This document shows positions 9,044 through 58,931 of a DNA stretch of 64,000 bases, one piece after another. The DNA comes from an uncultured Chloroflexia bacterium (GTDB lineage Bacteria > Chloroflexota > Limnocylindria > QHBO01). The stretch covers positions 258,306-322,305 of the forward strand of contig CAWFCQ010000005.1 in NCBI GenBank assembly GCA_963814375.1. Reading direction: 5' to 3'. Under the pieces are notes generated by a model that saw only the letters and a program-made list of their open reading frames with translations, had not been told where the DNA came from and made no database searches. Within the stretch, counting starts at the first letter, position 1, and every line of letters begins with the position of its first letter. Both the position numbers and the translations under genes were made by a program.

Positions 9044-9505
9044 TCATCGGTCCTCATGGCGTCCGATGACCTCCCGGATGGTCGCCCCCAGGACCTCGTA
9101 AGTGACCGGCTTGGTCAGGTGCGTGGCGAAGCCCGACGCGCGGCTCTGGGCGATATCCTGCTCCTGACCGTATCCGCTGAAGCTGATGCCGGGCAGCGTC
9201 GAGCCCCGATGGCGGAGGGTGCGCATCAGGTCCAATCCGCTGCCGTCGGGCAGGCCGAGGTCGCTGATGAGCAGGTCGAACTCCTGCTCGATGGCGGCCT
9301 TCAGGCGCACGTTGAGCCCCTCCGACTCCTCCGCGACCTCCTGCTGCCGGATCGCGGAGAGCAGGAGCGATTCGTTCATCGCCACCGCCCGCCTCCGGAA
9401 GACGGCGGTCTCCGTCACGTCCGTCACCTGGATCGTGAGTCCGGCCGCCCTCCCGGCCGCCCCGACGACCGCCCCCGCCGCATAGGACCAGTAGACTCCC
9501 GGATC
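9044..9505 (-). pseudogene. remnant of hybrid sensor kinase (PAS-linker fragment joined to half a receiver domain)
   Basis: FDLLISDLGLPDGSGLDLM...SGYG...HLTKPV receiver C-half; no HisKA/HATPase domain; interrupted by IS4. Confidence 0.65.
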
Positions 9506-10985
9506 CAGCCCTCTTGGATGCGTCATTTTGTACATGTATGACGCGCTTCGAGAATCTTCGCGGTGGCGACGTGTTTGATCTTGGCCCCGCTCTGCTTCTT
9601 GGGCTTCGGCTTCTTCGGGCCGCGGGGGTGCTTGCGGAACTTCGGCAGGGAAACCGACCGCGCCAAGCGCACCAACACCTCGGCCAACTCCACGGGGGTC
9701 AGGTCGTGAAACACCGACCCATTCGTCTTCGGGGATCGCGATCATCATCCCCCGGTGGGTCATCTGGATCTCGTCGGCCACGTAGTAGCCCGAGACCTCC
9801 TCCGCCACCACCTCCTCGCCATGCACCGACCGCAACGCCGCCTTGAGCGTGCTCAGCACGTTGTACGACACCAACGCCACGCAGAAGGCGAACAGCGCCG
9901 CCTTGGGATAACCCAGGGTGTTGATCTCGCCGTGGAGCGTCGCCTCCAATTCCTGGAACGCGGTCTCGATCGTCCAGCGCCGCCGGTACAGATCGGCGAT
10001 GACCTTGGCACGGGCGTCCTTGGCCGGCACGTTGGTCAGCAGGTGGAGTTCGGTGTCCCCGTCCCGCGTCGGTTGGTCCAGGAGCACCGTGACCCGCCGC
10101 AGGAAGAGGATCTCGCCCGCGTCGTTGGTGGCCCGGATCGTCTGCTCGAAGACCTTGCCGGTCTCGATCCGGCCGCACGCCCGCCGCTTCCCGACGAACT
10201 CCCAGTGGAGCGTCGAGGCGTGCTGTCGGATCACGAAGGACCCGTCCCGCCGCGCGATCCCGAAGAGGAAATCCGTCGTGCAGAAGTTGCGGTCGGCGAT
10301 CCAGAGGTCCTTCGCCGCGACGATCGCCAGGACCTGGTCCAGCAGCGACCGCTCCTGGGCATGACCGTCTTCGCACAGGACCACGTCGGTGGCCAACATC
10401 AGCCGGGGGTCGAGGACGACCAGCGCATGGCCGGGCAAGGCCCCGGCGCCGATCGTCCGCAACTCCTTGAGCCGGTGCTCGGTCCCGGGGAGATGGTTGC
10501 CGTCGAGGATGCGGACGCGATAACCGGGCAGCCAGTCCGCCCGGCCGCCGCCCATCGCGTCGATGACCGGAGCCAACCGCGCGGCCACCGCGTGGACCAG
10601 CGCGGCCGACACGGCGGTCTCGGTGCCGTCGAGCTTGTCGTAGACGGCGTCGATCGTGGCCCCGACCGTCTCGGCCCGCGCCTGAAAGGCGGCGTGGATC
10701 GAGGGCCGGATGCGGCAGACGACCACGCTCATCAGGTCGACGATCGTGGAGAAGAGGAGCTTGTGGGTGAACTGCTTGCTGGGCGACGTCCTCGAAGAGT
10801 TGATCGACGATCCGGGGGTTCAGGGCGTTCTCCATGACCCCTTGAGCCATGACGGACAAGGGGGAATCCTGGGAGAACCGCTCGAAGACGTCGCTGAGGA
10901 TCATCGCTGCCGCCTCCGCGGAGAATCGGTAACTCCGTATCTGGCGACAGCTTAGCAGATTCATGCGGACGACTCCAAAGGGCTG
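9506..10985 (-). mobile_element. IS4-family insertion sequence (~1.48 kb)
   Basis: Terminal IRs CAGCCCTCTTGGATGCGTC / CAGCCCTTTGGAGTCGTC; 11-bp direct repeat ACTCCCGGATC at 9495-9505 and 10986-10996. Confidence 0.92.
9523..10905 (-). CDS. IS4-family DDE transposase (indels ~9715 and ~10780)
   Basis: ILDGN, IADRNF, and the YRRRWTIETAFQELE (YREK-like) signature. Confidence 0.9.
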
Positions 10986-19984: not shown

Positions 19985-22534
<2,550 letters not shown>

Positions 22535-26796: not shown

Positions 26797-27928
26797 AGCA
26801 ACTCGCCAGAATTAATTTGACACGCCGTTTGCTCATGAGCAGCCTCCGGATGGAGGAGAAGCCCATGAGCCGGCTCAACCTGACTTCCTGGCAACGGCGG
26901 CGCCTCCGGCGTCAACTCGCGGAGACCCGGGATGCCCGCCTCTTTCGGCGGACCTTGGCCGTCTTGGAGTTCGACCACGGTCGCTCCGCCGCCGACATCG
27001 CCCGCATGCTCGGGGTGACCCGGCAGAGTGTCTACGACTGGGTCGAGGCTTACACTCGAGGACCACGACCCCGCGTCCCTGGAGGACGAGGGAGGCCGGG
27101 GGCGTCGCCCGCTGCTGGACGAAGACCAGGAGCACTTGCTGGAGGCCCTCCTCGCCGTCTCGCCCCAGGACCTCGGCTACCCGCACGTGAGCTGGACGGT
27201 GCCTCTGCTCCGCGAGGCCCTGGAGATCGCCACGGAGCAACGGGTGTCCGATGACACCCTTCGCCGGGCACTGCGCCGACTGGACTACGTCTGGAAGCGG
27301 CCGCGCTACGACCTGGACCCGGACCCGGAGCGCGAGAAAAAAACGCCGCATTCGCCGGCAAATCCGGGCCCTGCCGCGGCGCAGCGTCGTGCTGGCCCAG
27401 GACGAGACCGACCTGCTGCTGTTCCCGCCGTTGCGCGCCGCTTGGTCGAAGCGCGGCGAAGTCGCCAAGGTCTGGCTGAGCGGCCGCAACGCCCGGCGGG
27501 TGATCTTCGGGGCGATGAACCTGCGGACGGGGACACGGCTGTTCGTGCCGCGCGAGAAGGGGCGGAGTGGTGACTTCCAGGCGTTCCTCGGGGAGGTCCG
27601 GTCGCACTACCGGGGCTGGCATGTGGCCCTGTTGCTCGACGAGGATCCCTCGCACACGGCCAAGGCCTCGCTGCGTGAGGCCGAGGGGATGACGCTGTTG
27701 TGGCTGCCGAAGCGGTCGCCGAAGTTGAACCCGATGGATACGCTGTGGGGGCAGGGCAAGGACGTGATCAGCGCCAACAAGCAGTACGCGACCATCGAGG
27801 AGCAGGTGGATCGCTTCCTCGGTCATCTGCGCAGCCTGACGAATCAGGAGGCACTGCATACGTCCGGCGTCCTCTCCAGGAGGTTCTGGCTCAAGAGGGC
27901 GTTGTCAGATTAATTCTGCGGAGTTGCT
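26797..27928 (+). mobile_element. IS630-family insertion sequence (~1.13 kb)
   Basis: 26-bp IRs AGCAACTCGCCAGAATTAATTTGACA / AGCAACTCCGCAGAATTAATCTGACA; TA duplication at 26795-96 and 27929-30 (CTAG target). Confidence 0.93.
26865..27913 (+). CDS. IS630 transposase (HTH OrfA + DDE OrfB, probable -1 programmed frameshift at A7 run ~27336-27342)
   Basis: IARMLGVTRQSVYDW helix-turn-helix; QDET, LLDEDPSH, LPKRSPKLNPMD; GAGAAAAAAACG slippery site; extra indel ~27058. Confidence 0.88.
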
Positions 27929-29543: not shown

Positions 29544-32688
<3,145 letters not shown>

Positions 32689-38849: not shown

Positions 38850-39775
<926 letters not shown>

Positions 39776-43069: not shown

Positions 43070-44535
43070 GGCGCCGACGCAGCGTCCAGCGACCCACGAA
43101 CGCGGCGAGGACCAGCGACGCAGGGCGACGATCAACGGCCGGTCGCCGAGGTCGACGTACCACGTCGCGACCGGTGCGCAGTCGACACGTCCGCGTAGAT
43201 CACCCGTTCGCTGACGGCGGTGCGGTCGAACACGTCGCCGTCCGGCGTCGACGAGCTCGCGAGAACCCGGTCGGCGACACCTGCACCACCCAGCGCCCGG
43301 TCTCGATCGCCCGCAGCCGGCTCGAGGCGACCTGCTGCGTCTGCACGATCGTGCCGGTGTAGCTGGCGCCGTTGGTCGGGTTGAGGATGACCTCGCCGCC
43401 GTGCTTCACGCCCTCGCGTGCCCGGCCGCCGAAGAACACCTCCCACGAGATGACGACCGCCAAGCGGGTGCCGTCGGGCAGGTCGACGACTGCCGGCCCG
43501 GTGCCGGCGATCGCGTTCGTCGGCACCTGATCGACCGGCGCGCCGATCGCTTCGAGCAGGCCGCGGAGCGGCACGTACTCGCCGAACGGCACGCGCCGCA
43601 CCTTGTCGTAGCGGCCTGACGCGCACCGTCAGGGCGTGACGACGACCTGGGCGTTGGTGATCCGACCCGGCTGGTCGGGCACGTCCTCGGTGACGCCGAC
43701 GGCGAACGGGACGCCGAGCCGCGCCGCCTCGGCGGCGACCAGGCGGAGCTGCTCGCTGGTCGCGAAGTCGACGGTGTCGACGACGTTCTCCGGCCACACC
43801 ACGAGGTCGAGCGAGTCGTCGGGCTCGATGGTGCCGTCGCGTCGAGGTGGCGCTCGGTCACGATTCGCGTCGGCACGTCGATGGCCCGTGTTCCCTGCTC
43901 GCCGCCGCCCTGCACGGCGGCGACGTCGAGCATCTCTCCGGTCCCGCGCCCCGCGGGGCGACGAACGCCAGCATCAGCACCGCGGCCGCGGCGACGAGGG
44001 CGCCGATGGCGAGGGGCTCCCCGCGGCGCTCGCCGCGCGCCGTGGCGGAGATCAGCGCGCCGAGCGCGAAGCCGACCTGGAACACGACCCACGTGATGAG
44101 GATCACGCCGCCGACGCGGGCGATGCCGGCGAGCGGACCGGCGGCCTGCGCGATGCCGAGGCTGGCGAGCGGCACGCCGCCGAACGGGAACGAGAAGCGC
44201 AGCGCCTCGACCAGGGTGTGGGCGGCCGGCCGGCCGATGATCCGCCAGCGCCCGGTCGGAGCGACGAGCTCGGCGACGCCGTGCCAGCTGGCGAAGAGCA
44301 GGCTCGCGACGATGTAGCCGGGCACCGTGAGCTGCCACATCCACGCCATGCCCATGGCCATCCAGACGAGTCCGAAGGCCATGCCGCTGACGAACCGGTC
44401 CCGCGCCGACGGCCGGGGACCGACGGCGATCTCGAGCAGCGCCGGGCCGGCGAAGGCCAGCGGCCACCATCCCCACGGGGGCAGGGAGAACGCGACGAGG
44501 AACCCGCCGAGGGCCGCGAGACCGATTCTCTTCAG
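43070..44535 (-). CDS. lnt: apolipoprotein N-acyltransferase (indels; ends approximate)
   Basis: SLPPWGWWPLA, PFGGVP, VQGG, WPEN, K.RRVPFGEY, ISWE, PTNG, RAIETGR. Confidence 0.88.
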
Positions 44536-49925: not shown

Positions 49926-50450
49926 TCAGAACCGGAAGCGAGTGAGGCCGCCCGGGTCTGTGCCCAACACGACCGTCGCCGAGCGGGGCTCGATGCGAAA
50001 CACGTGCCACGGCGGCGGACCTTGAGACGGTGCGTTGAACGGCGCGGTGATGCCGGAACCGCTCTCATCGGGCTCCACGGGCCAACCGTTGTCCGCCCAC
50101 GCCTTCGCAATGCGCGCCACGATGCCCGGGTCCGTCACCCGGGCGGCGTCACCCTCGACGACGACGTCCGCGTCGAGGATCGAGACGGCGATCGAGCAGC
50201 GCGGATCGCGCGTGACGTTGTGGCGCTTCCTGGTTCCCGAGCCGGTTTGGAACCAGAACGCGCCATCGAGCCAGACGGCGCCGACCGCAGTCACATGCGG
50301 GCTGCCGTCCTCGTTCACCGTTGCGAGCCAGGTCGTACGAGCGTTGTGGGCGTCCGGAGCCGGCGCCGATCCCGCATCCAGCTTCTCGGTGACTGCGTCC
50401 CAGTCCACTGGCGGGAGCCCGTCCCCTGCACCCAGGTTGATGATCTCCAT
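49926..50450 (-). CDS. pyridoxamine 5'-phosphate oxidase-like (split-barrel flavin/F420) protein
   Basis: WLATVNEDGSPH, RK..N..RDPR, VEG.A. Confidence 0.85.
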   Translation of the reverse strand: MEIINLGAGDGLPPVDWDAVTEKLDAGSAPAPDAHNARTTWLATVNEDGSPHVTAVGAVWLDGAFWFQTGSGTRKRHNVTRDPRCSIAVSILDADVVVEGDAARVTDPGIVARIAKAWADNGWPVEPDESGSGITAPFNAPSQGPPPWHVFRIEPRSATVVLGTDPGGLTRFRF

Positions 50451-50543
50451 AGCTCTTTCCTTTCGTCGCTGAGCGACACGTGCGCAACCGCGTGTCGTAG
50501 ATCAGACGTGCCGAAATCAGCGAAGTCATCGGGCGCGTGCCGC

Positions 50544-51530
50544 TCAGGGGTAGCCGGCGACGACGGCGTAGAGGTACTCGCCGAAGTCCTCGGCGAGGCC
50601 GTTGACGGCGAACTCGGAGCCCCATGACCAGACCTTGAGGCGGATCTGGTCGTCGTCTGAGGGGTCGGGCGGGTTCAGGTCGCCGAGGTAGACGACCCAG
50701 TGGTCGGGGGGCCACGCATCGTCTTTGCTGTGGATCGTCGACTCGAGCACCCCGACGGGCATTCGCACGGTGTGCCTGGCCCGTCGCCAAAACATGTCGC
50801 TCTCATCGTCGTCTCCGCCGTCCTTGATGAGGTTTGCATCGACGAGCATGAAGCAGACCCCACCAGCCTCGACGGCGTGCCGTGCGACTTGGAGCGCTTC
50901 GAGCTCGTCGGTGTGATAGCACTCGAACAGTTCCGACCGAAGTCCGAGGATGTCGCGGACCCAGCGCTCCATGGACCCGGGCAGGCTCATCCCTTCGATT
51001 CCTCGGCCGTCGTCGAGGTCCTCGAAGACGTTCTCCTCCTCGCGGATCGTCGCTGCGATCATCCAGTCCACCTGCCCGACACCCGCAGGTGACGGTTTGG
51101 CGCGAAGCTCGTCGTCCGCATCGATCGAACTCCCGTCGAACACCGGCAACCCGCCGGTCTCGTACAGGCGTGCTACAGCCGACACGTACGACGACGGTGA
51201 GCGGCGGATCATCTCGAACATCAGCGAGAACGGTCCGCAGAGATGAGTTGGGTTCTGAGTCAGGATGGCCGGATCGCGCAAGCGGTCCTGGATCTCGCCG
51301 ACGACGATCTCCCGACGCAGCTGCGACCATGCGCTCTCGGTTCCCGCGGCGAACCGACGCAGCTCAGCTCCCGCCGACGCGAAGCGTCGGGCGAGTTCAA
51401 CTCCGACACTGCCACCCGGTCCCGTGGCAAACGGCGGCCACACGCCGAGCCCGAGCGATCCCCGCACACCCCACCGGCCCGAGCCGTCTCGTCCGAGCGC
51501 GAACGCCGCATCCCTGAGCGAACCTGGCAT
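50544..51530 (-). CDS. hypothetical protein, putative papain-like Cys-His hydrolase
   Basis: Q.....CGP, HWV and WSWG motifs in papain-like order; GGAGGTG RBS. Function is inferred. Confidence 0.6.
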   Translation of the reverse strand: MPGSLRDAAFALGRDGSGRWGVRGSLGLGVWPPFATGPGGSVGVELARRFASAGAELRRFAAGTESAWSQLRREIVVGEIQDRLRDPAILTQNPTHLCGPFSLMFEMIRRSPSSYVSAVARLYETGGLPVFDGSSIDADDELRAKPSPAGVGQVDWMIAATIREEENVFEDLDDGRGIEGMSLPGSMERWVRDILGLRSELFECYHTDELEALQVARHAVEAGGVCFMLVDANLIKDGGDDDESDMFWRRARHTVRMPVGVLESTIHSKDDAWPPDHWVVYLGDLNPPDPSDDDQIRLKVWSWGSEFAVNGLAEDFGEYLYAVVAGYP

Positions 51531-51586
51531 TGTCACCTCCTGTTGCTCGCCATGCGTCAGCCGTCGGTCGACATGACGCAGCCGGC

Positions 51587-52772
51587 TCAGCGCGGGCTGA
51601 CGAGCACTCGAACCATTCCGCGACCGTGCGAGAGCGGCGTCAGCGCCTTGCCGATGGTCGAACCGACGGCTCGGGCCAACTCGTCGACCCGTCGGGCGTG
51701 ACCGGGGGTTGACGATGTCGTGAGCAGATCACCCGGTTCGATCGGTCCTGGACGCCGCGTCGGCCAAGCACCACACCTTGCCGACGAGCGCGACGTTGAC
51801 CGCGCCTTCGTGACGATCGAGAACCACCGCCGGCGACACCCCACCGGCACCGGACACGATGCCGGCAACAGCGGCGTCGTACTCACGTCGACACGGCTCC
51901 ACCCGTCCGTCGCCTCCGATCACCACGACCGTGCCCGCATCCACACCTGGATCGGACGCAGTCAGCGCCTCGGCATAGTCGGCTCCAGCAAGGAACAAGT
52001 CACCGGTGACCTCGACATTGCCCTCGACGACGACGTTGCCGGCGAATCGCCCGGCCGGATTGCCCTGGCCGAAGATCCCGGGACCATTGTTTCCCAGCTG
52101 GAAGCCACACACCGCCGCCTTACCGGGTGCGTTGGCCACACCCTTGACCCCATCGCCCGTGGCCAACCCGTCTCCCCAGACCCCTGCGGATCCAACCTCC
52201 GCAGGAGCGTGGGTCTCGCCGTACACGCCGATCCACGCTGCACCCGTGCCGTGCACACCCACCACTCCCCGACCTTGCACCCCATTGCCCTTGATGCTCG
52301 AACCGAGTACCCCGGGTCCGCCACCTTCCTCAGCGAGGTGGTGACCCTCGACTCCGCCGCCACCAGCGACACGGGCGTGCCCCTTCACACCCGCTCCACC
52401 CGTCAGGCCTTCACCCCACACGCCCGCGGGACCGCCCTCGCTGCCATGCGTCTCGCCATAGACACCGATCCACGTGCGACCGACGCCAGAGACGCCGACC
52501 GGCCCATCCCCGCTGACACCATGCCCACCTGTCGTCGACTGGCTCGCGCCGAACACCCCATGCCACGTGGAGCTCTCTCCGAACACACCGGTCGCGGCAC
52601 TCCGACCGTGCACGCCGACTCCAGCTTGTGGCGTGGCGTTGTCGTTCACTCCCATCACACCGGCTCTCGCCGCCGCGTGACTCAAACCGTCGACACCGAC
52701 ACCGTTGGACGCCTCACCGCGAACGCCGGGCTCATCGACCCCGTCAGTGCTGCCAGTCAACCCAGTGCCCAC
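51587..52772 (-). CDS. GVxG-repeat fibre-like protein with C-terminal peptidase-G2-like autoproteolytic chaperone (indel ~51750)
   Basis: About 20 GVxG units, then GDL..GADYAE, GTVV, GIVS, ALVGKV, I.PGDLLTTS.TPGHA, IGKAL; AAGGAGG RBS. Confidence 0.75.
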
Positions 52773-52874
52773 GGTGCCTCCTTCGGGTCGTACTCGGCTG
52801 GCGAGAGTAACGACAGCTGTCCCGGAGTTCCGCGGTTAATCGACAGGGCGGTAGCGGACCGTACGCGCTGCTCG

Positions 52875-54056
52875 ATGATCCCGCCTTCCAGCTGACGGGC
52901 CCACATCTCCACGACATCGTCAGCCAAGCTCCATGCAAACCGGTCGATGGTTGTGGACGATGACGGCGTGTTCGAGCGCGTTGACTACCCACATGAGTCT
53001 CCGGCGACCGACGGACTGGCGCGGCTGCGCGGAGACGGGTGGTCGGCGTTTGTCAAAGTCGTGCGGTCCTTCCGTCACTGGCCACGCTGGGCCTCGCTGC
53101 CGCTCGAGGCGCGTGAGGTGCTCGGCGCCGAATCGGTGTGGCGCCAGGAAGTCGACTTGTACACCTCGGGCCTGGGGCGCGTGCTGCCAACGGGAATGCG
53201 CTTGCCCGGGCTGCTCGGCGTCGTCGACCTCGGCCACGACCGGCTGATGTTGGTGCTCGAGGACGTCGAGGTCGACCCGACGCCGTGGGACCAGGAGCGC
53301 TACGCGCGTGCGGCGCGGCTGCTCGGCCGGTTGAACGTGCGGCTGACCGAGACCGCCGGCCTGCCTCGTCGCTCGACCGAACGACCGGCGGAACTGGTCA
53401 ACATCATGTACACCAGCCGGCTGCTCCCGGTGGGGCTGCCAGCGCTGGCGGACGACACGATCTGGCGCCACCCCTTGCTGGCGGGTGAGGCGGAGCTGAG
53501 GGCCGATCTCGCCGAACTGGCGCGGCGCTTGCCCGCACTCGTCGAGGTCGCCAGTCGTCTGCCCCAACTGCAAAGTCATGGTGACGCCACACCACACAAC
53601 CTGCTCGTACCGAGGCGGGAGCCGGGCATGTTCGTCGTCATCGACTGGGCGATGGCCAGCCTGGCCGCCGCCGGCGACGACCTCGGCCAACTACTCGTCG
53701 GCCACGCCCACGACGGCGTCCTGGGCGCGGACGATCTTCCCGTGCTCCACGACTGGCTCGTGCACGCCTACGTCGCCGGGCTCGCGGATGAGGGCTACCG
53801 GCTCGACGAGGACGTCGTACATGTCGGCATGAACACCGGGTTGTCGGTGCGCAGCGCATTCACCGCCCTACCGCTGGACCGCCTCGGGGAACCAATCACC
53901 GACGATCTCGCCGCGGCGGTCGCCGGACGCATCGAGCTCACGCGCTACCTCGTCGACCTCGGCCTGCAGATCGACCTCGAGCGCGCGACTCGAAACAACC
54001 CACGTTTAGCGGCGCGCGAAATGCGCGGCAGCTCTCTGCGAGCATCCCTGCAGTGA
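52875..54056 (+). CDS. APH/choline-kinase-like phosphotransferase (5' indels)
   Basis: FVK, LVLED, HGDATPHNLL (Brenner motif), IDW. Confidence 0.8.
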
Positions 54057-56439: not shown

Positions 56440-57875
56440 ATGACGCACCACGACCAGATCTACATCGACGGAACGTGGGTGGCCTCGACCGGAACCGGGA
56501 CGATTGACGTCTACGACTCCACCAATGGTGAGGTCATCGCCGCCGTGCCGGACGGGACCGCCGAGGATGTCGACCATGCGGCGAGGGCGGCGGCGGCCGC
56601 CTTCGAGTCGTGGTCCGCCACGACGCCGGAGGAGCGGGCCAAGTACTGCACGCGCATCGCCGAGGGCTTGCAGGCTCGTCTCGACGAGATCGCCACCGTC
56701 GTCACCCGTGAGGCCGGGATGCCCAAGTGGCTGAGCCAACTGGTGCAGGTCGGGTTGCCCGTCAACTCGTTCAACACCGCCGCTCAGGTCGCCGAGAGCT
56801 TCCCGTACGAGGAGCAGATCGGCAACAGCCTCGTCGTGCGCGAGCCGGTCGGCGTCGTGGGCGCGATCACGCCGTGGAACTACCCGCTGCACCAGATCGC
56901 GGCGAAGGTCGCCTACGCCATGGCGGCCGGGTGCACCGTCGTGCTCAAGCCCAGTGAGGTCGCCCCGCTCGACGCGTACATCCTCACCGAGATCATCGAC
57001 GAGGTCGGCCTGCCACCGGGCGTGTTCAACCTCGTCTGCGGGAGCGGCGCCGTCGTCGGCAACGCGATCAGCAGCCACCCGCTGATCGACATGGTGTCGT
57101 TCACCGGGTCGACGCGGGCCGGGTCGCAGGTGGCCGCCAACGCCGCGGCATCGATCAAGCGGGTCGCCCTCGAGCTGGGTGGCAAGTCGGCCAACATTCT
57201 CCTCGACGACCTCGACGACGAGCGCTTCGAGAAGGCGTTGCGCGACGGCGTCGGCAAGGCCTACCTCAACTCGGGGCAGACGTGCACGGCGCTCACCCGC
57301 ATGCTCGTGCCACGCGACCGCTTGGCCGAGGCCGAGCGGATCGCCGCCGACGAGGTCGAGCGCAACTACCAGCCGAGCAACCCCTTCGCAGACGGCGCTC
57401 GGCTCGGCCCGCTGTCGAGCCGGACGCAGGTCGAGCGGGTGACCGGCTACATCCAGACGGGGATCGACGAGGGCGCCAAGCTCGTCACCGGCGGTCCCGA
57501 GCGGCCCGAAGGCGAGGGCCTCGAAGGTGGGTTCTACGTCAAGCCGACGGTCTTCTCCGAGGTCACCAACGACATGACCATCGCCCGCGAGGAGATCTTC
57601 GGGCCGGTGCTGTCGATCCTGCCCTACGAGGGCGAGGACGACGCCGTACGCATCGCCAACGACACCGACTACGGGCTGTCCGGCGGCGTGTGGGCGCAGG
57701 ACCCCGATCGGGCCCAGCGCGTCGCCCGCGCGTCCGCACCGGCCAGATCGAGGTCAACGGAGGAGCGTTCAACCCCAACGCTCCGTTCGGTGGCTACAAG
57801 AAGTCTGGTTACGGACGAGAGTACGGCCGCCATGGCTTCGAGGAGTTCCTCCAGGTCAAGGCGATGCAGCTCTGA
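56440..57875 (+). CDS. aldehyde dehydrogenase (indel ~57730)
   Basis: [43 protein letters not shown]. Confidence 0.95.
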
Positions 57876-57878
57876 CCA

Positions 57879-58931
57879 TCAGTCGGATCCGAGATCCGAT
57901 GACCCGCTGACGAGGTCGTTCCAGCGGACGACGATCTGACCGTTGTGGTCCGGGAGCGGGAGGGCCGCTGCTTCTGCCTCAACGGCATTGCGGGCGGCGT
58001 GGGAGAGGCGGCGCCAGGTGTGGACCGTCACCGTTCCTCGGGCGCGCCGCCAGGTCCCGACGATGTCACCGTTGACGAGGACGGCGCCTGGCCAGACGCG
58101 AGGAGTCCACAGTTGGAGACGATTTTCGGGCTCGCGAACGAGGAGCCGGCGATGCTCCCCCTGGAGGAGGAAGTAGGTGTCGCCGCTGGGAAGGAGCCGG
58201 GCCGGTGCCGGCGGGAGGGCGGGTTCCCGGAAGGCAGGCTCGTCTTGAGCCAGGATCCATCCGTGTCCGATCGGTGTGGACACCGACGTCAACGACGGGG
58301 CCAGCGCTTCGAACGCCGCGTTCGCGCGCCGGGGTTCGATCCCCGCCCAGTCCGCGAACGAGTCCGCGGTCCCCGGACCGAAGACGTGCAGATATCGGCG
58401 GGCGAGCTCGACTCGGGCGTCGACGGGGTCGACGTCGGGACGCGGCACGGTCCAGATTGTCGGTGCTCGGGCACCGTCCCAGCGGATCAGAACCGTGCCC
58501 GTCGGCGCGGCATAGCGGAGCGCGTTGGGGTGAATGCCGATCCCACGTCCCGCCGCGCCGTAGTTCATCGTCCGACCGGCGAGGAACTCGTGGAGGCGAG
58601 CCGCCGTGTCTTCGGCTCGCCACAACGCCTTGGTGTCGTCAGGCAGCCTCCCGAGCGTGAACACGGCCCGGTCCTGTGCCGCCACCACGTACGTGCTGAA
58701 TCGCGGCCCCCACAACTGCACCAGCGACGGGTCCTCCCAGGCGGCCGGTCCGGTCCCCTCGACGCGAGCGTGGATCGACAGCACCGCGGCTCGGGGCATG
58801 CTGTCCTGCAGCCCCGCCCACGCCGCCCGCCGCAGGGAATGGGCGCCAGGCGGGAGCCGCTCGTCGAGCGCCCCAACTCGCCTCCGGAACGAGAGGATCT
58901 GCGGCCGGGTGAGGACAAGACTCGACGTCAC
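57879..58931 (-). CDS. AlkZ-family (HTH_42) interstrand-crosslink DNA glycosylase-like protein
   Basis: GLQDS (QxD motif), LSIHARV, RRYL..FGP.T..FA.W.G, LLP..D.Y, G.VLV.G..VG.W. Confidence 0.8.

Follow-up and report, generated by a model that had tools for sequence, protein, structure and literature searches.

A conserved gene pair for a fibre-like protein with a phi29 gp12-type C-terminal domain and a papain-fold peptidase, possibly a mobile fibre-and-effector cassette

Two neighbouring genes on the minus strand of a 64,000-nucleotide stretch of DNA from an uncultured Chloroflexia bacterium (the whole stretch is called the window here) encode a glycine-rich repeat protein whose C-terminal domain has the predicted fold of the phage phi29 gp12 auto-chaperone (gene 1) and a predicted papain-fold cysteine peptidase of an unnamed family (gene 2). 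A preliminary description of the window had proposed that the two genes form a unit, and the pairing does recur across at least seven phyla: a gene with the same C-terminal domain lies within 3 kb of gene 2 in 26 of 30 informative loci and directly upstream of it in 19 of the 30. Considering this linkage together with the effector-type settings of distant gene 2 relatives and a short peptide that recurs at the termini of otherwise unrelated partner enzymes, we read the locus as a mobile two-gene cassette for a fibre and a tagged effector, a reading to which we assign a probability of roughly 45%. Should the tag and the proposed docking fail, the annotation of two unknown families and of a conserved gene pair remains solid. 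In the literature covered (subscription journals and supplements fall outside this scope), neither this pair nor the peptidase family was found described, and the same holds for bacterial stand-alone fibre genes of the gp12 type. Although built from parts of known kinds, the cassette appears to be new, as do the unnamed peptidase family and the terminal peptide. The features of the locus are as follows.

52777..52783, minus strand: ribosome-binding site of gene 1, AAGGAGG, 4 nucleotides 5' of the GTG at 52772 (read from the sequence)
51729..52772, minus strand: gene 1, first frame, 347 residues, glycine-rich GVxG-repeat region and beginning of the C-terminal domain (list of open reading frames and sequence)
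51969..51986, minus strand: GADYAE motif, predicted autocleavage site, with the putative cut before Asp codon 265, which is D264 of the database relative P0069 (invariance, hhalign and structure alignment)
51746..51749, minus strand: frame break, one extra base somewhere in tcc-AGGA-ccg; the two frames join when AGGA is read as one step
51587..51745, minus strand: gene 1, second frame, final 53 residues of the auto-chaperone-like domain at the C-terminus (PIEPGDLLTTS...VLVSPR), stop at 51589-51587 (sequence and search of the genome itself)
51534..51540, minus strand: ribosome-binding site of gene 2, GGAGGTG (sequence)
50544..51530, minus strand: gene 2, predicted 328-residue clan-CA (papain/calpain-fold) cysteine peptidase of an unnamed family (structure model and fold matches)
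51381..51524, minus strand: N-terminal extension of gene 2, about residues 3-50, with 'SLRDAAFAL', proposed docking tag (family-specific)
51237..51257, minus strand: Q94 (51257-51255) to C100 (51239-51237), predicted oxyanion-hole Gln and nucleophile Cys of Q-x5-CGP (invariant in 53 relatives)
50700..50702, minus strand: H279, predicted catalytic His of the DHWV motif (invariant; on strand 279-288)

As the preliminary description had it, the genes are co-oriented, each is preceded by a strong ribosome-binding site, and 56 bp separate the stop codon of gene 1 from the ATG of gene 2 at 51530. This ATG is the start of gene 2; the GTG at 51536 given in the list of open reading frames falls within the ribosome-binding site, and the database copy P0001 has 328 residues.

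The two proteins and their families

The C-terminal domain of the gene 1 protein, judged from its structure model, appears to be an intramolecular chaperone of the phi29 gp12 and Peptidase_G2 kind rather than of the S74 kind. The fold comparison was made by way of an AlphaFold2 (AF2) model of P0069, which is 93% identical to the window copy; 63 relatives went into this monomer model, and its confident part is limited to the ~130 residues at the C-terminus. Residues 256-391 of the model superpose on residues 682-854 of pre-mature gp12 (3suc) with a Z-score of 13.8 and a root-mean-square deviation (rmsd) of 2.2 Å over 115 aligned residues, and residues 264-391 superpose on residues 692-854 of the released gp12 fragment (3gqh_A) with a Z-score of 13.5. 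Identity to the gp12 structures is 19-22%, and Foldseek agrees on gp12 (E 1.3e-3 and 4.3e-3). The next fold matches (Z 8-12) are trimeric capsid decoration or cement proteins, including those of HFTV1 (Z 12.3) and Sf11 (Z 10.9), and the base of the phi29 head fibre. At the sequence level, Pfam Peptidase_G2 (PF11962) gives weak matches below threshold in 8 of 63 relatives (best E 0.0055) and is carried by 7 of the 30 nearest Atlas clusters; its gathering score of 25 bits is not reached by the window pieces, by the reconstructed window protein P0068, or by P0069 (0 matches). Peptidase_S74 has no Pfam match at E <= 1, and S74 chaperones are absent among the fold matches listed, the best of which are of the gp12 type. 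The chaperone-like domain noted in the preliminary description was therefore right in kind, and its type appears to be G2 rather than S74.

According to passages in PMC13317679 and PMC4690869, the D4 domain of gp12 acts as an auto-chaperone and is lost once the trimer has assembled, and a passage in PMC4690869 describes the fold of the phi29 chaperone as unlike the S74 type. Evidence for a comparable cleavage site in gene 1 comes from the GADYAE motif, in which D264, A266 and E267 (P0069 numbering) are invariant in 62-63 relatives. Alignment with hhalign lays GADYAE on 'SDFAE' of gp12 (E 0.015, probability 3%), and in the structure alignment gp12 residue 692, with which the released fragment 3gqh begins, is matched by residue 264 of the model. 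Cleavage of gp12 lies between S691 and D692, with E695 three residues on; D692 and E695 are reported to have been described by Xiang et al. in 2009 as the catalytic pair. By analogy, the gene 1 protein would trimerise and is probably self-cleaving, with a predicted cut before Asp265 (window numbering). Both proteins are elongated and repetitive and end in this fold, which for gene 1 is modelled, and the D-x-x-E of gene 1 coincides with 'SDFAE' of gp12. In contrast to gp12, which has a beta-helix with a particle-attachment domain, the upstream part of gene 1 consists of GVxG or other solenoid-like repeats, its sequence similarity stays under the Pfam threshold, and its class is found on cellular chromosomes and plasmids without phage genes and linked to a separate enzyme gene.

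The first ~260 residues of the gene 1 protein are 29% glycine, and the motif G[VIL]xG occurs 22 times in the first 262 residues, mostly at spacings of 8-15 residues, whereas 2000 shuffled sequences averaged 3.9 and never exceeded 11, which bears out the earlier characterization of gene 1 as a GVxG-repeat protein. In the AF2 monomer this N-terminal part has no secondary structure (predicted local distance difference test, pLDDT, 55-89) and only weak fold matches to the triple beta-helix of phage hyaluronidase (Z 4.4-5.0, rmsd ~6 Å). For these reasons the word fibre, as applied to gene 1, rests on the repeats and on analogy, and the N-terminal part is best called a putative fibre. The family comprises 1056 related clusters, and the protein has no real match in Pfam, PHROGs, NCBIfam or PADLOC, with a profile search of PDB sequences returning low-complexity noise. 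Another protein of the same genome may be a secreted cousin of gene 1. It is encoded at ~553.8-555.0 kb of contig C8 (locus L020, 1144-2313, minus strand) and has 389 residues, with an N-terminal membrane- or signal-like segment, gene 1-like glycine-rich repeats, a '...GDFFGDVVVDGDIQV' neck, and a different C-terminal part that lacks GADYAE; it has no Pfam match.

The AF2 model of the gene 2 protein has a pLDDT of 93.6 and a predicted template-modelling score of 0.92. The best 50 matches listed among 48,161 representative chains are all papain-fold cysteine peptidases, with Z-scores from 9.9 to 5.7. Calpain cores stand at 9.9 and 9.8 (calpain-9: Z 9.9, rmsd 4.6 Å, 202 aligned residues), and the others include Alr0975 (9.2), staphopains (8.8 and 8.6), SpeB (8.5), the CdiA-CT toxin (8.5) and C39 domains (~8); against calpain the template-modelling score is 0.36 and identity is 9-13%. 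The motifs that had led the preliminary description to call the protein papain-like, Q-x5-CGP, DHWV and WSWG, are all found, and Q94, C100, G101 and H279 are invariant in 53 relatives (C100 is Cys98 when counted from the ATG). In the model, Cys100 lies at the start of helix 100-112 and His279 on strand 279-288. By modelled fold and motif, then, gene 2 is papain-like as had been suspected. It is nevertheless placed outside calpain family C2 because it has no real sequence match in Pfam (including Peptidase_C2), NCBIfam or PDB sequences; PHROGs and PADLOC gave none either. With calpain C2 and other clan CA peptidases (staphopain, SpeB, C39 of ComA/PCAT, and CdiA-CT of Citrobacter rodentium) it shares a two-lobed papain fold, a similar size (~320 residues for calpain), and Gln, Cys and His in the expected elements. 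It differs from them in a Trp that, read by eye, takes the place of Asn, in a family-specific N-terminal extension, in the missing sequence match, and in an insert of ~30 residues (about 240-270) that is also missing from its own distant relatives.

The gene 2 family has 67 close clusters, and a profile search of 1.84 billion representatives found 1322 relatives at E <= 1e-3, 127 of them at E <= 1e-30. Many distant relatives are longer proteins with the protease domain at their C-terminal end. When the N-terminal parts of 35 of these were searched with Pfam, matches were obtained to eCIS_core/DUF4157 (2), FG-GAP (2), Beta_helix/NosD (2), C2 (3), PKD (1), LGFP (1), hemopexin (2) and PG_binding_1 (2, one together with eCIS_core), with none in the remaining 21. 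The motifs Q..CGP, P[DNT]HWV and [WFY][ST]WG are retained in all five distant relatives inspected in local alignments, and the N-terminal extension is absent from the fused ones, which match only from profile position ~40-60 on. On a Tenacibaculum finnmarkense plasmid (CP116296; L074, 3173-5354), a 568-residue protein annotated as TssD has an Hcp domain at residues 3-136 and a C-terminal part that tblastn relates to gene 2 (E 2e-7, 19.5% identity). The arrangement resembles an Hcp-effector fusion accompanied by a possible immunity gene; a gene for a 156-residue hypothetical protein follows, with an integrase and an IS91 transposase alongside.

Since relatives sit in eCIS_core, Hcp and multi-domain C-terminal slots, we place the gene 2 domain among effector-type enzymes. 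Passages in Geller et al. 2021 (PMC8213781) describe an N-terminal DUF4157 with a C-terminal toxin as an architecture of extracellular contractile injection systems (eCIS), and passages in Zhang et al. 2012 (PMC3482391) describe papain-like toxin heads in polymorphic toxins. These contexts support the word effector and not a delivery route. The suggestion that the pair is an orphan cassette for a contractile injection system encoded elsewhere is unsupported here, because Phage_sheath_1, Baseplate_J and eCIS_core have no match in the window genome (G000; 8 contigs, 2.5 Mb, 89% complete), in a search whose eCIS_core model matched no control genome either. The window protein likewise differs from eCIS toxins in having no eCIS_core domain of its own.

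Linkage of the pair and other partners of the fibre genes

The informative loci come from two collections. Among reference genomes, 17 gene 2 loci were found, and 13 are informative after exclusion of three distant or partial ones and one without upstream DNA. The domain gene is directly upstream in nine of these (L001-L004, L007-L009, L011, L014) and within 3 kb in 11; it lies 1.3 kb upstream with another gene between in Archangium (L012) and on the opposite strand in L005, and L006 and L013 have gene 2 without a domain gene nearby. The metagenomes gave 31 gene 2 loci, from which eight distant relatives (24-28% identity), none with the fibre C-terminal domain nearby, and six close ones with too little flank were excluded, to leave 17. 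Ten of these have the domain gene directly upstream, five more have it within 2.5 kb in other arrangements (gene 2 and then the fibre in L044), and the two without it are truncated gene 2 copies. In the metagenome contigs L045 (2942-3469) and L046 (377-904), just the C-terminal half of a gene 2 homologue is present (84% identity to the window copy over residues 155-330), with no fibre gene close by, and these halves may be truncated remnants. By record title, the hosts are Actinomycetota, Acidobacteriota, Verrucomicrobiota, Chloroflexota, Myxococcota, Lysobacterales and Rhodobacter.

Partner fibres are alike only in their last ~140 residues; their N-terminal parts are made of different repeat types, some with Lys/Ser-rich heads. 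No signal peptides were found on the linked partner fibres, and the pair has no other conserved neighbour. Distances among C-terminal domains and among gene 2 proteins show a modest correlation (Mantel r 0.32, a value reached in 3 of 2000 permutations). A tree was built from 51 C-terminal domains, with L049 left out and with L026 taken from the unpublished genome G227. One 42-row clade contains every one of the 21 linked rows, distributed over several well-supported subclades, and a separate 9-row clade of domains on signal-bearing proteins contains 0 linked rows. Fibre-like genes of the signal-bearing clade are followed by genes for small proteins of ~95-110 residues, which have an N-terminal signal-like segment and a conserved '...Y(L/V)P(I/A)(V/I)(L/V)(R/K)...' C-terminal tail, sometimes after CCC. 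These genes lie at the following positions.

L031, 815-1144, minus strand
L039, 677-970, minus strand
L041, 1688-1969, plus strand
L029, 2370-2660, plus strand
L035, 1200-1496, minus strand

The fibre family itself is patchy. It was found in 14 of 401 genomes of the window genome's phylum (G000 counted) and in 0 of 3 same-genus genomes. The phylum to which the Acidobacteriota locus belongs has it in 38 of 301 genomes, with up to six copies in a genome, and the phylum of Archangium in 6 of 301. Plasmid copies sit beside transposases, recombinases and toxin-antitoxin genes. The wider pattern that had been envisaged, a fibre gene followed by a variable enzyme gene, recurs as well. In an actinobacterial genome, a protein with GDPD-phosphodiesterase and PLAT domains is encoded directly behind the fibre gene (L027, 2247-3593, plus strand), and a GDPD-PLAT protein 45% identical to it is encoded behind gene 2 and a fibre-like gene in Polyangiaceae (L006, 12310-13695, plus strand); the fibre-like protein there, P0334, has 475 residues and a coiled-coil tail in place of the gp12-type domain. 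An Exo_endo_phos (EEP) enzyme follows the fibre gene in L079. Reprolysin-like Zn-peptidases follow it in L088 and L089, with scores above the Pfam cut-off, and in L123, just below it, and HExxH is present in L086 and L122. A family of ~430 residues occupies the position in L021-L023 and L084, further loci have still other genes there, and a family of ~315 residues, function not known, occupies it in five loci.

L076, 2370-3314: ~315-residue family
L113, 2374-3318: ~315-residue family
L087, 1982-2899: ~315-residue family
L120, 4030-5010: ~315-residue family
L024, 4574-4897: ~315-residue family

Members of the ~315-residue family begin with MIS[FY][RK]xQLxKIG...SLRxAMRSMD and end with ...FLKSF.A..P[DE]LI. 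They come from Myxococcota, Acidobacteriota, a Hymenobacter plasmid and a viral contig, and in Archangium the gene is flanked by the fibre gene on one side and the gene 2 homologue on the other.

This range of partners bears on whether the two products form a processing pair, in which the cysteine peptidase would mature, trim or recycle the fibre, by degrading the freed chaperone domain or by cutting the fibre, and would have no external target. The tight linkage of gene 2 to the one conserved part of its partner, the C-terminal domain, would fit such a role, as would the missing immunity gene and the lack of export signals on both proteins. We nevertheless regard it as improbable. Most fibre genes of the class are without gene 2, and a fibre whose Asp/Glu site of the self-cleaving type is invariant would need no helper protease. 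Furthermore, the unrelated enzymes in the same position (phosphodiesterase-PLAT, EEP, Zn-peptidases) cannot all process the fibre, and eCIS_core, Hcp and surface-repeat proteins carry terminal domains related to the protease.

What many of the partner enzymes have in common is a terminal pattern, S-(L/V/F/Y)-(R/K)-x-x-(L/A/M), usually as two copies no more than ~35 residues apart in all. Gene 2 (consensus SLRDAAFALD...SLRELxxRF), the ~315-residue family, the Zn-peptidases and the GDPD-PLAT enzymes carry it at the N-terminus; the ~430-residue family carries it at the C-terminus, as do small partners from Streptomyces, Bacillus and G227. In its strict form it occurs at least twice at a terminus in 21 of 53 members of the gene 2 family, compared with 8 of 118 distant gene 2 relatives and with none of 24 window genes and none of 120 fibre proteins; 34 of the 53 have at least two S-hydrophobic-R/K motifs in the N-terminal extension. 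A set of plasmid loci was then scored by a rule fixed beforehand, and at least two motifs at a terminus were found in four of five first-downstream partners vs 1 of 37 other annotated coding sequences from those regions. Shuffled partners reach the four-of-five result in 0.6-1.8% of trials, and the hypergeometric probability is ~2 in 10,000. A shared adaptor domain was looked for with hhalign and BLASTP of gene 2 against the other downstream proteins, and nothing was found. From the sequences, the terminal peptide appears to be a real yet weakly defined feature. A twin-arginine translocation (Tat) signal was considered for it, given the resemblance to S-R-R-x-F-L-K, and was rejected by eye; the peptide has one Arg only and no hydrophobic stretch after it, and several copies are C-terminal.

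A possible fibre-and-effector cassette and its alternatives

In the mechanism that we propose for the cassette, the gene 1 protein with its glycine-rich repeats would be made in the cytoplasm and would trimerise via its C-terminal auto-chaperone domain, as by analogy with phi29 gp12. This domain would then cut itself off before the Asp of GADYAE to leave a fibre-like trimer. The Cys-His papain-fold peptidase encoded by gene 2 would be the enzymatic payload, and a short peptide of its N-terminal extension would dock it to the fibre protein, most likely at the C-terminal domain and neck, the sole part conserved among partner fibres. The resulting complex would act outside the producer cell. Trimerisation, self-cleavage, export or release, and the target are all steps that we infer. 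If a self-cleaving domain uses up the C-terminus of the fibre, this would account for a payload encoded on its own and not fused C-terminally, as payloads are in polymorphic toxins.

One described parallel is the polymorphic toxins, in which, according to passages in PMC3482391, a conserved filamentous module (RHS or tail-fibre) is combined with interchangeable enzymatic heads that include papain-fold peptidases. Relatives of the gene 2 domain likewise fill the C-terminal slot of multi-domain, eCIS_core and Hcp proteins. In contrast to those toxins, the fibre and the enzyme are separate genes here, with toxin fusion found only in distant relatives, and the fibre C-terminus is a domain of the self-cleaving type. 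There is also no recognisable trafficking domain and no conserved immunity gene, and the enzymes have only a short terminal motif in common.

A number of observations weigh against the cassette as we have drawn it. The docking of the gene 2 protein to the fibre is a step that we purely infer. Concerning the tag, the window copy of gene 2 carries a single canonical motif, its second being degenerate. A hidden Markov model of gene 2 residues 1-66 found nothing among the other partners (best 4.8 bits), which means that the tag is a short motif and not a homologous domain. The pattern had been widened on the Acidobacteriota and Myxococcota loci before the plasmid test, so only the plasmid set is independent, and within that set the positive L124 looks unlike the rest and the first partner in L122 is without the motif. 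Concerning the pairing, most fibre genes of this class are without gene 2 (it is present in none of 20 loci, in none of 38 newly found ones, and among none of 9 partner proteins from plasmids), and the window fibre domain lies in its own actinobacterial subclade, no other member of which is known to be linked; this position suggests, as far as the tree goes, that fibre and enzyme have been re-paired. Concerning the enzyme, in an alignment by eye the Trp of WSWG stands at the position of the third catalytic residue of papain (NSWG) and calpain (NPWG), and for this reason peptidase activity is not certain; D278, D273 and E245 are conserved candidates for that residue. Concerning delivery, no secretion or lysis genes linked to the cassette were found, and inspection of the N-termini found a recognisable export signal in neither protein, as had been described earlier, the longest hydrophobic run in the first 45 residues being 3 (gene 1) and 5 (gene 2). 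Finally, no conserved downstream open reading frame or immunity gene follows gene 2 among 16 loci, although a fast-evolving small one could escape such a comparison; the genes downstream are unrelated housekeeping or regulatory ones, and a missing immunity-like gene is unusual for an antibacterial toxin.

The absence of an immunity gene would also fit a structural or adhesive fibre at the producer's own surface, where the peptidase and the other partners would remodel the envelope and no other organism would be targeted. The sister clade of the C-terminal domain does occur on proteins with N-terminal signal-like sequences, and protease relatives carry the cell-wall modules PG_binding_1 and LGFP. 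This surface or matrix role is quite unlikely in our assessment, given that signal peptides are missing from the window proteins and the linked fibres, that the PLAT/GDPD and EEP partners and the eCIS_core and Hcp fusions fit attack better than housekeeping, and that a core envelope function would call for a less patchy distribution.

Patchy and mobile distribution (14 of 401 genomes in the phylum and 0 of 3 in the genus, with plasmid copies near mobile elements and toxin-antitoxin genes) is instead what one might expect of an intracellular anti-phage module of the abortive-infection type. An appendage- or decoration-like trimer would sense or decoy a phage component and free or activate a variable destructive enzyme. 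A conserved module with interchangeable effectors, proteins without export signals, and the resemblance of the C-terminal domain to the HFTV1 and Sf11 decoration or cement proteins are all compatible with this idea. It remains an unlikely account, as neither protein matched any family among the protein models of PADLOC 2.0, the pair has no linked NTPase or other sensor of the usual kinds, the window neighbours are metabolic, and the PLAT, hemopexin, PG_binding, eCIS_core and Hcp contexts of relatives point outward.

If the fibre-and-effector cassette is what the locus encodes, then the gp12-type auto-chaperone, a phage-appendage assembly device, would have been co-opted by cellular genomes of at least nine phyla for non-virion use. 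The unnamed peptidase family (at least 1322 clusters at 50% identity, with no Pfam model) would gain a context in eCIS_core, Hcp and surface-repeat effector slots and in the fibre cassette. The short peptide at the termini of unrelated enzymes would represent a new targeting signal, one that might serve as a loading tag, and hundreds of 'hypothetical' fibre-like genes in Streptomyces, Acidobacteriota and Myxococcota would be given a handle. A bolder generalization, which we consider doubtful, is that these loci represent a widespread non-contractile 'fibre-and-cargo' class. In it, a stand-alone trimeric fibre with a self-cleaving chaperone would recruit interchangeable hydrolytic effectors via a ~35-residue terminal S-hydrophobic-R/K peptide and would act on cells or phage without a tail, a sheath or a classical secretion signal. 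The effectors of such a class would be the cysteine peptidase, the reprolysin-like peptidase, the EEP enzyme, the GDPD-PLAT phospholipase-like enzyme and members of unknown families.

The frame break and the genomic neighbourhood

Gene 1 had been taken for one open frame, which it is not in this assembly. The frame from the GTG at 52772 ends at the TGA at 51731-51729 after 347 residues, and the last 53 residues are in the +1 frame at 51745-51587; the two are separated by one extra base within 51749-51746. When AGGA is read as a single step (X), the result is the 394-residue protein P0068, which is collinear with the intact relatives of 393-395 residues, the closest of which is P0069. A search of the genome itself with gene 1 gives a match that falls into two pieces at the break. 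The break is probably a consensus error of the assembly rather than decay, because gyrB and other window genes are broken likewise and an essential gene cannot be a pseudogene. For example, gyrB is split into two open reading frames (19988-21481 and 21328-22524) and an AcrB/MMPL-type transporter into three (29560-32228), and frame breaks or in-frame stops are also found in an ABC ATPase (two open reading frames), a CN-hydrolase, and the C-terminus of an aldehyde dehydrogenase that spans 56.3-57.9 kb of the window. Besides those of gyrB and the transporter, the broken spans of these core genes are as follows.

39208-39698: broken core gene
43150-44000: broken core gene
57600-57950: broken core gene

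Six soil sequencing runs, with no RNA data set listed, contain just 5% of the sequence words sampled; contigs from four runs yielded relatives, mostly less than 95% alike, and no informative indel at the gene 1 break. Probable indel errors in the assembly mean that 'pseudogene' calls for this genome need care.

The frame break might be taken, along with a phage appendage protein as the nearest solved relative of the C-terminal domain, to indicate a decaying prophage or tailocin fragment from which an appendage gene and a lysin-like neighbour were left over. This explanation is largely refuted, and we leave it hardly any weight. The break is no sign of decay, since gyrB and other core genes are broken too. 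The 84 window open reading frames scanned against Pfam contain no phage gene, with no integrase, capsid, sheath or baseplate protein among them, as the preliminary description had stated. Among 2.9 million viral contigs there is no match to gene 2, and gene 1 matches at just four loci; 50,697 phage records gave no match to either protein. The pair is also intact across phyla without any other common neighbour. A separate case of fragmentation is seen in an Actinomycetota metagenome-assembled genome (L009, 8699-11015), where the fibre gene and the gene 2 homologue each lie in several overlapping open reading frames, in either an error-rich assembly or a decayed copy.

The neighbourhood is metabolic, as had been noted, and by Pfam the genes around the cassette encode a thioesterase, DUF3455, an aldo/keto reductase, a dienelactone hydrolase, PNPOx, RibD_C, RidA and the aldehyde dehydrogenase. 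A scan of 50300-53100 limited to the sigma-70 and intrinsic terminator consensus found no promoter-like or terminator-like sites. Two transposase genes, 23-40 kb from the cassette, are the sole mobile-element genes seen in the window. One, at 9047-10819 on the minus strand, has DDE_Tnp_1 sharing one open frame with a response-regulator receiver domain, perhaps another frame error, and the other, at 27019-27910 on the plus strand, carries HTH_32 plus DDE_3.

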